Shown here in pieces: positions 21,212 to 53,511 of a DNA stretch of 64,000 nt. The stretch lies in IMG/VR virus record IMGVR_UViG_3300010163_000001, positions 32,001-96,000 of that record; one strand, 5' to 3'. The notes under the pieces are model-generated. The model made no database searches, was not told the origin of the DNA, and saw only the letters and a list, made by a program, of their open reading frames with translations. Position 1 is the first letter of the stretch, and each line of letters starts with the position of its first letter. The DNA comes from a virus (lineage: Duplodnaviria > Caudoviricetes). A program made the translations under genes and the position numbers.

Positions 21212-21504
21212 ATTACTATGCATATCTACCTCAAAACATTGCTCTACCCTTCGCATCTATTCCCACACATATCCATGCTCCGCACTTCCTATTCGTAACA
21301 ATACCGTGCTAGGCTTTTCCTTATCAAGACTTAACTACGCCCAGCTTCTCCTATACATAACATAGCTTAACTGTACACTACAATGCTGCGCCATTTCATT
21401 ACTTACCACACTGTACTGGGCTATTCCTTTTCTATACTCAACCAAGCAACTCATTTCCTATGCATTACTACACTCTACGTTACGTTACAGTACCACTCCT
21501 TTAC
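21212..21504 (-). ncRNA. Pentamer-periodic (G-N4) repeat array 1, candidate non-coding RNA
   Basis: ~57 consecutive G-initiated units, mostly 5-mers, punctuated by GG hexamers; no ORF of 60 aa or more; lies between a stop codon and a terminator. Confidence 0.75.
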
Positions 21505-21505
21505 A

Positions 21506-21799
21506 TTACCAATGTCCAGTTTTTAGTCGTTGTTTTATTTCTAACTCTTTTTTGAATTTTTTTCTTTCCTTACGATATTTTCTACTATATTTCATAAGGA
21601 TCTCATGAACCATCTGTGTGTTTATTTGGTCATTGCTCACTGGATTTACATCATACCAATTTTCTCCGAGCAAATAATCCTTTAGAAAATATAATGCATC
21701 GCTGTCCGTTGTTGGTGGATTGAACAAATTGCTTTTCTGGTTTGGCTTATTATCCTCTTCGTTAATATGTTCTGTAAATGTTTTTCCTTTTGCATACAT
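21506..21799 (-). CDS. Hypothetical protein
   Basis: AGGAGG RBS; immediately upstream of array 1. Confidence 0.75.
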   Translation of the reverse strand: MYAKGKTFTEHINEEDNKPNQKSNLFNPPTTDSDALYFLKDYLLGENWYDVNPVSNDQINTQMVHEILMKYSRKYRKERKKFKKELEIKQRLKTGHW

Positions 21800-25977: not shown

Positions 25978-27522
25978 TTGAAGAGCGCAACTGAAACAAT
26001 CAATGAAACACCTTTAACAGAAGAGATTCCTATGCTTACGGAGTGGCATAGTGATGAAAACACAAATTATATGGAATTTAAGGGGGAATTTGTAGAAGCA
26101 AAATATAAATTATTAGGATTGCATGAAGATAATAAGCTAGGTTTCTTCATAATAAACAAGAATCATTATAAAGATCGTATGGAAGATATCTGCAATACAA
26201 TCAATTATTTCCTCACGTTCTTTGATCCAGAATTGGAGTTATTTAATTCCATGTTACAAGTGAAATTTATCATAGACCAGAGACCTAAATTATCAAAAAA
26301 AGCATTTCAGAAATTTGTAGTAGATGAAATTGTTACTGATAGCTTTATAAAGAAGATAAAGAATATGATGAAACATCTATATCGAATTAATATTGATACA
26401 GATGCGGAAGGAAAATATAAGAATACACCAAAAATTACAAATGAACAGGCAAAAATTATTGTAGCAATATCTTTTGCGATCCGATGCATTCTTCCTATCT
26501 GTATACATTTTTCAGATACGAATGTCAATTTCTTAAATAAAAAGAGTTACATTTCATGTTTTGACAAAATTATTATGAAAATCATTAAAAAGTTTGAAAA
26601 AGGCGAGGTAGAAATATTTAATTCTCTTTGTGGATTCATCAAATATCGTGTAGATCGTTTATGGTCTAGTGATATAGGTATCTGTTTGAAAAAGAAGCAG
26701 TTATATGGAATCACAAAAGAATTATATTTAGAAGAGGTAATACATGAAGTTATATTGGTAAAGAGTTTGTATAAATTGACTTATTATCGCTCTGTTGTGT
26801 CATTTATCGACGGAGTAATATTCTCATATCATTATAATTTCAAGATAGAAAATTTCAAATTCAAACCAATTGAAATTGATACATCTGATACGTCATCGGA
26901 TGATTCTGAACGATTATCTCATATGGAAGCAATTGAGATGATGGTTTATATGATTGATGAATCAAATGCTTTGATTAACGAAGTAAATTCAGAACGTGTT
27001 CTAAAATCTATTCGGAAAAAATTTAATATTCATATTTCAGATGAAGAAAGAGAATTTTATGATAAACGACTAAAGATATCTCCAGTAACAAAGTTTTTTA
27101 TAGAATCATTTTATAATAGGTATTTTCATGAACCAAATGCAATTATTAACATGGAGAGAGATGTTATCATAGAACTTGTAATCTATATGAAGAGATATCT
27201 TCAATATAAGGGAATGATTTTACTTCCTCAATTATGTACTGCAAAGATGAGAGGGAAATACAAAGAGAACATGATAAAAAATTCGAAGTTTATTGAACGC
27301 GCAACTACATCGGATGCATGGAATAATGTAATCAAAAGACGATTTACATACGTAAATGAGTTGAATGATAAGGAAGACCATTTATTAAAGAAACTATCAT
27401 CTTTTATAAATTCTCAATTTGAATTTGTTGATTTCAATGGGCCGGATGATGGATTACTATATGAAGATATAGATCAAGATCTGATTATCAAAGAATTTTC
27501 AGAGTTTTTGACCATTATATAA
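25978..27522 (+). CDS. Possible nvRNAP promoter-specificity (sigma-like; AR9 gp226/phiKZ gp68-like) subunit
   Basis: ~514 aa helical protein; AISFAIRCILPICIH resembles my recollection of the gp68/gp226 family; not verified. Confidence 0.4.
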   Translation: MKSATETINETPLTEEIPMLTEWHSDENTNYMEFKGEFVEAKYKLLGLHEDNKLGFFIINKNHYKDRMEDICNTINYFLTFFDPELELFNSMLQVKFIIDQRPKLSKKAFQKFVVDEIVTDSFIKKIKNMMKHLYRINIDTDAEGKYKNTPKITNEQAKIIVAISFAIRCILPICIHFSDTNVNFLNKKSYISCFDKIIMKIIKKFEKGEVEIFNSLCGFIKYRVDRLWSSDIGICLKKKQLYGITKELYLEEVIHEVILVKSLYKLTYYRSVVSFIDGVIFSYHYNFKIENFKFKPIEIDTSDTSSDDSERLSHMEAIEMMVYMIDESNALINEVNSERVLKSIRKKFNIHISDEEREFYDKRLKISPVTKFFIESFYNRYFHEPNAIINMERDVIIELVIYMKRYLQYKGMILLPQLCTAKMRGKYKENMIKNSKFIERATTSDAWNNVIKRRFTYVNELNDKEDHLLKKLSSFINSQFEFVDFNGPDDGLLYEDIDQDLIIKEFSEFLTII

Positions 27523-45941: not shown

Positions 45942-45980
45942 AAAAAAGAAAGTATGCTTTTTTAACATACTTTCTTTTTT
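45942..45980. terminator. Intrinsic terminator downstream of array 2
   Basis: aaaaaagaaagtatg...catactttctttttt. Confidence 0.8.
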
Positions 45981-46108
45981 ACATCTCTGCACTAGACGAA
46001 ACACACTTAACTTTACTTCACAGAACCATAACAAACCATACTCCGCATAACCTTACCCATCCTCTTCTATACATTACTTTACTTCACAGAACCACAGCAT
46101 AGCTGTTC
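45978..46108 (-). ncRNA. Pentamer-periodic (G-N4) repeat array 2, candidate non-coding RNA
   Basis: ~26 consecutive G-initiated units with GG hexamers; 19-nt direct repeat at 46010-46028 and 46076-46094. Confidence 0.7.
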
Positions 46109-46122
46109 TATTTGTCTAATGA

Positions 46123-46662
46123 CTATGCAAAAATTTCATCCGCTCTTCTTGCCATGTCTTCAAAGGAAATCGAACCATTATACAATTTTCGACGACTCCT
46201 CTTGTTGTATATTACAACATTTGACACAACATTTTCTCCTTCAATACATTCTATATCAATTGGCTCTTGATTTTTAAGCTTACTGATAAATTCCGGAATC
46301 GTATTTGCTATACTTAATAAAGATGTCATGATATACCCTTCTAGAGTATCATCGTCATCCATGTCAATGACATCCTGCATTCCCATAACTTCCAAGCTAG
46401 TAACCTTCCCACCTGTTGTGTGGAAGATAATTGCTTCATGCAGCAAACCGAGCATTGCTATTTTCCGGTATTCATCTTTCCCGGCGCTGTCTATCAGTGC
46501 AGATGCCAATTGCTCAGGTGTAAAGGAGCCATTTAATCTCGGATCGCCGTCGAATTGCATTTCAGTAAGTGCCATCATTTGTTCTGTGATAATGGCAATT
46601 GCCATCGTAACTTTTAGTTCTCCCCATGCGTCCTTAAATTGATCAATAATATTGTTTTTCAT
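46123..46662 (-). CDS. Hypothetical early protein upstream of array 2
   Basis: GGAGG RBS; ATATATTAT at 46710-46718. Confidence 0.75.
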   Translation of the reverse strand: MKNNIIDQFKDAWGELKVTMAIAIITEQMMALTEMQFDGDPRLNGSFTPEQLASALIDSAGKDEYRKIAMLGLLHEAIIFHTTGGKVTSLEVMGMQDVIDMDDDDTLEGYIMTSLLSIANTIPEFISKLKNQEPIDIECIEGENVVSNVVIYNKRSRRKLYNGSISFEDMARRADEIFA

Positions 46663-46746
46663 TATAATTCCTCCGTTTCTTAAAATTGATTTAGTTTCTT
46701 TACCTAAAAATAATATATGTGTAATTCTCGAGTAATTTCAATGAAA

Positions 46747-52961: not shown

Positions 52962-53468
52962 TTAGTTCCCCTTTTTTATCCAATCTTTTTTAATAATACT
53001 GCTCACAACAGTTACAAATTCATCTTTTGACAACGCACTTATATTCTTGCTTGTTTCAGTGTTTTCCTCGAATTGCAATTCAGACCCTCCATTAAATAAG
53101 ACAACGTCTACCACATTGGAAAAGTTTCCGGTTACGTATTTCCGGTACGTAATAAAGTCAATCGGCTTTGCGCGTGAATAAATTAGAACAGGGGTGCTTA
53201 TATGCCAAAATTCCAATGTGTGTAAAAATGTAAGGGCAAATTCTTCTGATATAGTTGGAGTGTCATTCGAAAACTTCATTTCTCGATCCATAATAATTAG
53301 ATCATACCCATTTTTGGGATCAGATATTTTTTCTCTTGCATCAAAAAGAGTTTTTGATACAGTAACCGAAGGACATCCGGCATAAATTGAATCTTTTGAA
53401 ATACTGCGGACAACGTACTCATCATTTTCAATTATTAATACTCTTAATTCTGGTTTTTCAACTTTCAT
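52962..53468 (-). CDS. Response-regulator receiver (REC) domain protein
   Basis: Start MKVEKP after GGAGG; RVLIIEND, YDLIIMDREM, TPVLIYS; ATATATTAT at 53499-53507. Confidence 0.75.
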   Translation of the reverse strand: MKVEKPELRVLIIENDEYVVRSISKDSIYAGCPSVTVSKTLFDAREKISDPKNGYDLIIMDREMKFSNDTPTISEEFALTFLHTLEFWHISTPVLIYSRAKPIDFITYRKYVTGNFSNVVDVVLFNGGSELQFEENTETSKNISALSKDEFVTVVSSIIKKDWIKKGN

Positions 53469-53511
53469 TTTTATTATCCTCCTTTTTTCTATATAAAAAT
53501 AATATATGTTA

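Follow-up and report, generated by a model that had tools for sequence, protein, structure and literature searches.

A G-periodic pentamer array in a low-GC jumbo phage genome is a probable guide-RNA array of a non-canonical VIPR system

A 131-nt intergenic array of G-initial pentamers in a jumbo phage genome is most probably a guide-RNA (vrRNA) array of a VIPR system, of a non-canonical, staggered class in which a single G is fixed. The array is one of six in this genome that share a common grammar. Arrays of the same grammar recur in other phages beside homologues of a candidate Vipr protein that the genome encodes.

VIPR, a CRISPR-like phage weapon, was first described in 2026 as a lone RAMP protein, Vipr, together with vrRNAs of 5-nt repeats; canonical vrRNAs have 9-16 repeats of the form GGY/NN and carry a tail that is structured and conserved (bioRxiv 10.64898/2026.04.26.720920,.720927). 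The VIPR preprints also distinguish seven types and describe repeat variants (YNNNG, NNNNG) as well as 'staggered' arrays, in which the vrRNAs are displaced by 1 nt. In a later preprint, Vipr-like folds are accompanied by non-canonical arrays of the WGT/NN and TGH/NN kinds. Solo vrRNAs located away from vipr have been published as well, along with decoy and redirecting vrRNAs (bioRxiv 10.64898/2026.10.15.759431), so adjacency of array and vipr is typical but not obligatory. To date, VIPR has been characterised in a few E. coli and Pseudomonas elements.

The DNA under study, referred to below as the window, is a 64,000-nt stretch of a single 254,592-bp IMG/VR virus record (IMGVR_UViG_3300010163_000001). 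The record has inverted terminal repeats, a GC content of 31.5% and an estimated completeness of 100%. Feature coordinates are collected in Table 1.

Table 1. Arrays, repeats, genes and other features, by position in the window and in the 254,592-bp genome
Feature	Window position	Genome position	Strand	Basis or remark
Array 2, candidate VIPR vrRNA array	45978-46108		-	sequence, periodicity statistics and unit parse
Array 2, extent in genome-wide scan	45984-46111	77984-78111	-	period-5 G scan
19-nt block tggttctgtgaagtaaagt, copy 1	46076-46094		-	exact-repeat search
19-nt block tggttctgtgaagtaaagt, copy 2	46010-46028		-	exact-repeat search; 66 nt downstream of copy 1
Intrinsic-terminator-like hairpin	45942-45980		-	directly after array 2; 17-pair stem, then T run TGTTTTTTAA
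179-aa ORF, array 2 in its 3' region	46123-46662		-	ORF list
Sigma-70-like match TTGAAA-18-TATATT, 10/12	46712-46741		-	consensus only; upstream of the 179-aa ORF
Array 1	21213-21506	53213-53506	-	period-5 G scan
97-aa gene, array 1 in its 3' region	21506-21799		-	Pfam Tad8 match, E 8e-25
Array 3	outside window	123218-123874	-	period-5 G scan
PhuZ-like tubulin gene	outside window	123889-125136	-	Pfam Tubulin match, E 4e-8
Array 4	outside window	211966-212452	-	period-5 G scan
Array 5	outside window	214933-215417	-	period-5 G scan
Array 6	outside window	236734-236880	-	period-5 G scan
Possible single-unit seventh array ggtaaagtaatggctacgtatggtgatgtgtagaacag		182850-182935	-	intergenic; right before a terminator hairpin
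Vipr-profile hit, P0244		29111-29947	-	collinear with Vipr through the C-terminal G-loop
406-aa AAA ATPase gene		26156-27376	-	IetA-like; PADLOC E 1e-18

The array downstream of the 179-aa gene

Read on the minus strand, array 2 is a run of 26 short units, nearly all of them G-initial and most of them pentamers. Its phase shifts at GG hexamers (46093/92, 46052/51 and 46027/26) and at two tetramers. The first-pass annotation had described the sequence and the pentamer pattern in these terms, and the statistics bear it out. Within the 131 nt there are 27 pairs of the periodic base at a lag of 5, against 12.8 ± 2.5 in shuffles of the same composition, and none of 20,000 such shuffles reached that number. 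At lags 2-4 and 6-9 the count is 6-12 pairs, and at lag 10 it is 22. When 100-nt windows are scored, array 2 and array 1 reach 21-23, compared with a window mean of 2.7 (sd 2.4) and a maximum of 18 in 200 whole-window shuffles.

The array begins 15 nt past the stop codon of the 179-aa ORF and runs into the terminator-like hairpin, which agrees with the earlier statement that it abuts a terminator. Neither Pfam nor PHROG matches the 179-aa ORF. In the window, nothing was returned by a tRNA scan or by Rfam at gathering thresholds, megablast and tblastn of the locus found no match among cultured phages, and searches with the two proteins flanking the array yielded no relatives. An early-type promoter had been placed at 46710-46718, and that position is covered by a sigma-70-like site, by consensus match only. 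In this phage group, weak Rpb1/Rpb2 RNA polymerase domain matches (L016:6849-8336 (+), and L006, L008 and L014 at about 17-20 kb) suggest that phiKZ-like multisubunit RNA polymerases may be present, and host-type promoter scans may therefore not apply.

Two exact copies of a 19-nt block lie within the array, as had been noted, and the second enters out of the preceding phase. Array 2 is also the least regular of the six, with its two tetramers and with hexamers GGTTCT and GGTTAT in place of GGAAWW, and it may be a decaying or recently rearranged copy. Such features would suit a derelict or decoy copy, that is, a VIPR-derived remnant or a sponge for a competitor's Vipr protein: the array is short, it slips twice at tetramers, it lacks GGAAWW hexamers, its duplication is out of phase, and the VIPR literature includes decoy and redirecting vrRNAs. 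We nonetheless consider a derelict or decoy origin distinctly unlikely. G still starts 23 of the 24 parsed units, the stop-codon-to-terminator placement of the other five arrays is kept, and the phage keeps an intact gene for the candidate Vipr, P0244, which is described below.

Six arrays with one grammar

A period-5 G scan over all 254,592 bp recovered six long arrays, every one with its G on the minus strand. Array 2 had been counted as the second of two, about 24.5 kb from array 1. The distance is correct and so is the existence of a second array, but the count falls short: the genome has six arrays and possibly a one-unit seventh. Together the six span about 2.2 kb and hold about 420 units. 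Array 1 has 56 G-initial units, with GGAAWW-type hexamers every 26-41 nt, followed by a terminator. Shorter period-5 segments (54-84 nt) across the whole genome fall mostly within genes and are at chance level; shuffled genomes yield 380-570 qualifying windows of this kind.

The arrays are dispersed over the genome, as the first-pass annotation had proposed from two of them, and their placement is uniform. Each one opens directly behind a minus-strand gene's stop codon, with its G on the sense strand of that gene. A terminator-like hairpin follows in five of the six array sequences read. The upstream genes are unrelated: they encode a Tad8-like protein, the 179-aa protein, a PhuZ-like tubulin, and proteins of 146, 160 and 238 aa, the last of these adjoining a divergent family B DNA polymerase gene.

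Two of these genes have recognisable functions. Tad8 is a type II Thoeris inhibitor, and the 97-aa gene with array 1 in its 3' region is an anti-defence gene. The PhuZ-like tubulin gene lies directly upstream of the largest array (657 nt). Tubulin homologues number more than 120 in metagenomes, many of them on 200-285-kb contigs, and look like members of a large clade of uncultured low-GC jumbo phages.

All six arrays share one grammar, by unit parse and by the logo at unit boundaries, in agreement with the earlier claim for two. About 95% of the units are G-initial and about 82% are pentamers. Across the roughly 420 units, a pyrimidine stands at position 2 in 71% (U 57%, C 14%), and positions 3-5 are A/U-rich but variable. 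The units that are not pentamers are mostly GGNNNN, and the spacing between these GG hexamers is quantised at 5n+1: 31 nt occurs 18 times, 26 nt nine times, and 36 and 41 nt seven times each. The most frequent spacing, 31 nt, equals six repeats plus an extra G. A weak, hexamer-anchored boundary logo shows a last pentamer of the form G-(U/G)-A-A-(U/A), then the extra G, and then a next unit that is often GAAWW; it can be written G-K-A-A-W | GG. Taken together, the 5n+1 spacing and the boundary logo indicate that the arrays are strings of 5-9-repeat units, each shifted by one base. The genome holds about 56 GG-delimited guide units of at least four repeats.

Tandem 5-nt repeats with fixed and hypervariable positions are what identifies a vrRNA, and the arrays have them, in the form of the published 'related consensus' class and not of GGY/NN. 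A guide of 9-16 repeats with a conserved structured tail, as in type II, is not what is found here. The units have 5-9 repeats, no conserved structured 3' tail is seen in the arrays, and the only hairpin is the terminator.

A candidate Vipr protein

The SUSP1 locus (GenBank KT454805.2), with a 195-aa Vipr, a 146-aa Vap1 and GGU-NN arrays on both sides, served as the reference for a protein partner. A phmmer search of every ORF in the genome with SUSP1 Vipr returned no significant hit. A profile built from 118 SUSP1-Vipr homologues gave two weak hits among the genome ORFs, and only one of these is collinear with Vipr through the C-terminal G-loop. The protein, P0244, has 253 aa when the start codon behind a strong AAAGGAGG site is taken, and its gene lies about 2.1 kb before the start of the window. 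The direct HMM hit is weak (E 0.29). The N-terminal stretch of P0244 reads MKKMKVCIKFKEGLLGSCPADPE where the Vipr consensus has MKKLKIKITGTSPLLMH..ADPLNP, and its C-terminal loop reads YGALNGLGQWHNSGKGRFTW where the consensus has AGALIGLGDWRPRFGRFEVE.

Comparison of families and of folds is more informative. A family-family hhalign of 49 P0244-family members against 35 SUSP1-family Viprs aligns 187 columns, end to end, with a probability of 76% and an E-value of 2.3e-5. The AF2 model of P0244 has a pLDDT of 89.5 and a pTM of 0.81. The best 50 PDB matches to this model in Foldseek are all chains of CRISPR RAMP effector complexes, with a best E-value of 3e-6, and come from types III, VII, IV-B and I-B and from Cas7-11. 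In VIA-align, an all-against-all structural search, CRISPR RAMPs fill the first 31 rows, and Csm3 is matched with a Z of 12.8. The Pfam RAMP family PF03787 has no match in this genome, although controls matched, so P0244 is found only by the Vipr profile and by structure. A Vipr is defined as a small RAMP with an RRM core, a thumb and a glycine-rich loop, akin to the published Vipr family, and by model, fold searches and family comparison P0244 qualifies as one. On the strength of profile comparison, fold and context, P0244 is a predicted homologue of SUSP1 Vipr; direct sequence similarity between the two is insignificant.

The alignment also offers a possible link between protein and repeat code. 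In SUSP1, each Vipr protomer takes up one repeat, and the filament that the protomers build repeats every six subunits; of the two G bases in GGY, the first is read by D177 and H17, and the second stacks against W178. In the hhalign residue pairs, W178 corresponds to a near-invariant W207 and D177 to Q206, while H17 falls in a gap. As judged from this alignment, retention of the Trp, replacement of the Asp by Gln and the gap at H17 would fit arrays that keep one G and not two.

The P0244 gene is monocistronic, has its own terminator and is without an adjacent array. The nearest array is 23 kb away and the farthest 207 kb, all six being placed in the 3' regions of other genes. Downstream of P0244 are genes for proteins of 189, 198 and 145 aa and for a 406-aa AAA ATPase. 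None is recognised as a vap gene, and they are without counterparts in homologous loci. The ATPase, which ends this string of genes, is IetA-like. Three genes between arrays 4 and 5 (245, 346 and 146 aa) were considered as vipr or vap candidates and dropped; they have no Pfam matches and, by eye, two look helical and one is too small. A regex search for the G-loop in all ORFs was uninformative.

Linkage of the protein family to arrays in other phages

The P0244 family is large, with 1,438 representatives (50% identity clusters) at E <= 1e-3 in a full-library search and at least 564 loci in IMG/VR, of which 80 were fetched for a linkage test. An array of at least 100 nt on the strand of the gene is present in 74 of these 80 loci. 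The loci contain 125 arrays in total: 98 lie within 300 nt of the P0244-family gene and on its strand, and only four are on the opposite strand. Loci from other collections agree, with a same-strand array of the same grammar beside the homologue in all six examined from ENA and GenBank. Two of these are short ENA/Logan contigs with the array directly beside the gene, one array being about 900 nt long with GCAAAGG every 31-46 nt, and four are GenBank records of human-faecal phages, each with an adjacent same-strand array.

The homologue genomes range from 35% to 59% GC, and all have G at position 1 and a pyrimidine bias at position 2, which is U in AT-rich genomes and C in GC-rich ones. GG resets again occur at 5n+1, with a mode of 31. 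Conversely, no real array is present in about 150 kb of DNA from related jumbo phages, taken from around the tubulin gene and lacking a P0244 homologue; an apparent array in one related locus (L014) lies inside a coding region and was set aside as chance. This linkage of gene and array is the strongest evidence for the VIPR reading.

Several of the homologous loci are instructive in their own right. In a 49%-GC genome, the array at L018 700-1440 (+), of about 900 nt with GCAAAGG every 31, 36, 41 or 46 nt, is the cleanest example of the 5n+1 unit grammar. Two jumbo-sized contigs, L064 (IMGVR_UViG_3300035520_000350, 243 kb) and L070 (IMGVR_UViG_3300035499_000517, 258 kb), have a P0244 homologue and three to seven arrays. 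There the arrays are packed into the 5 kb downstream of the gene, as opposed to the dispersed arrays of the present genome, and dispersal therefore appears particular to this lineage.

Turnover of the arrays

In a set of related phages, identity is 91-100% between the P0244-family genes and 48-100% between the arrays that flank them, and some arrays are wholly replaced, so the arrays turn over faster than the gene. Where arrays of near-identical phages can be aligned, variation affects 10-13% of columns at the periodic G and 0-9% at the extra G, against 32-73% at positions 2-5. This is a fixed scaffold with fast-changing information, as expected of guides. The place of array 3 is taken by a different, 178-nt array in the closest relative (tubulin 80% identical), and six relatives with tubulins 41-75% identical have no array downstream of tubulin.

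Duplication contributes to this process. Arrays 4 and 5 share an identical 42-nt block (aaaggagtggaatgg...ggtgaggt), so that one or two guide units are present twice, and array 1 starts with atgtaaaggagtgg, which is related to the block aaaggagtggaatgg. The proposal that arrays grow by unit duplication and diversification is thus upheld in part, by the duplicated blocks of 19 and 42 nt. It gives only part of the picture, since related phages replace whole arrays while the protein gene hardly changes.

The same observations bear on whether the arrays act on the transcripts that carry them. They could be cis-acting 3' UTR elements coated by the RAMP or by another RNA-binding protein, with no DNA targeting, the coat controlling the stability, translation or localisation of the upstream mRNA. 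Every array in this genome does lie in the 3' region of a gene, including those for the tubulin and the Tad8-like anti-defence protein, and not beside the protein gene. The array RNA is also C-poor (7.9% C, 30% G), and it should therefore be largely unstructured and open to coating. Two findings make a purely cis-acting role very improbable: in 74 of the 80 relatives it is the RAMP gene itself, not some other gene, that has arrays at its flanks, and the rapid turnover of the variable positions around a fixed G is guide behaviour for which a coating site would have no need.

Scarcely credible is a binding site for a TRAP-like ring protein (NAG triplets with two-base spacers) or a helix-phased signal at the DNA level, even though TRAP sites such as the Bacillus trp leader have a period of 5-6 nt and the mean unit length of 5.11-5.14 nt gives 10.2-10.3 bp per two units. 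TRAP target RNA is made of (G/U)AG triplets with 2-3 nt spacers and AG is needed, whereas the periodic G here follows an A in only 38% of units, and the genome has no match to TrpBP (PF02081), for which the B. subtilis control matched; moreover, the arrays share the strand of the gene before them and, in relatives, that of the RAMP gene (121 of 125), which points to RNA and not to duplex DNA.

Comparison with known systems and a working model

As in the type II VIPR of SUSP1, the candidate protein of the VIPR system proposed here is a lone, small, phage-encoded RAMP with a C-terminal G-loop (GxGxW..G.F), and the RNA consists of 5-nt repeats with a fixed G and other bases varying. The SUSP1 arrays have GGY/NN repeats, 9-16 repeats per guide and a structured tail, and lie directly beside vipr-vap1 (L015 27601-27980 and 29142-29254). 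Here, by contrast, one G is fixed, the guides appear to be of 5-9 repeats, with an extra G marking their limits, neither a tail nor a vap is seen, and the arrays are far from the gene. Judged by text description, they resemble the non-canonical and staggered VIPR arrays, with W-G-Y-N-N or a G followed by four loosely constrained bases, and with one-base shifts.

Guide arrays away from any vipr gene are also known as the solo or orphan vrRNAs of SUSP1-family phages and satellites. The published solo vrRNAs occur in elements that lack vipr and exploit the protein of another element, whereas this phage has its own vipr-like gene with the arrays elsewhere. Finally, there is a likeness to the Cas7 backbone filaments (Csm3, Cmr4, type VII Cas7 and Csf2) in fold and in the pairing of one protomer with a fixed-length RNA segment. 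The Cas7 filaments of class 1 CRISPR have a 6-nt period, a contiguous spacer between CRISPR repeats, and other Cas subunits. The period here is 5 nt, and the PF03787 search of the genome found no other RAMP gene.

By analogy with SUSP1, array 2 would be transcribed with, or just behind, the 179-aa gene, and the transcript would end at the terminator. P0244 protomers would then bind one repeat each and form a helical filament, which may grip the fixed G together with the adjacent bases and leave the variable ones exposed. Each unit of 5-9 repeats between GG boundaries would serve as a single guide that recognises a competing mobile element through gapped pairing with its double-stranded DNA and silences it.

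A search for targets under twelve pairing rules, covering 0.87 Mb on both strands (the phage's own genome and the related and homologue loci), found no excess over shuffled guides, and two exact 1-nt-skip patterns had 0 hits in IMG/VR. Guides of 5-9 repeats carry little information for such a search. The lack of a self-target signal agrees with the published absence of self-targeting.

Outlook

VIPR has been known as a kind of system since 2026, and this work adds a complete 255-kb low-GC jumbo phage with scattered guide arrays. The points of note are the clear 5n+1 grammar and the scattering of arrays over 3' regions in a jumbo phage that encodes a tubulin. The one-G grammar and the aligned G-loop residues, with the Trp kept and the Asp changed to Gln, provide a testable link from protein sequence to repeat code, and the 5n+1 units prompt one to ask what determines guide length. 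Arrays of this kind also explain long 'empty' 3' regions in annotated genomes, which gene callers may fill with false ORFs.

A broader proposal, which we regard as unlikely, is that this phage, with its tubulin and its multisubunit-RNAP-like genes, has transferred all its VIPR guides from the vipr locus to 3' UTRs behind genes of varied function, among them the anti-Thoeris gene, the tubulin gene and the gene before the DNA polymerase. Guide supply would thereby be tied to the transcription programme of those mRNAs. The guides themselves would form a distinct short and tail-less class, about one filament turn in length (six repeats plus one G), cut or phased at GG. If true, dispersed guides would give an RNA-guided system a new form of organisation and timing, and would make it the first such system tied to a phiKZ-like style of replication.
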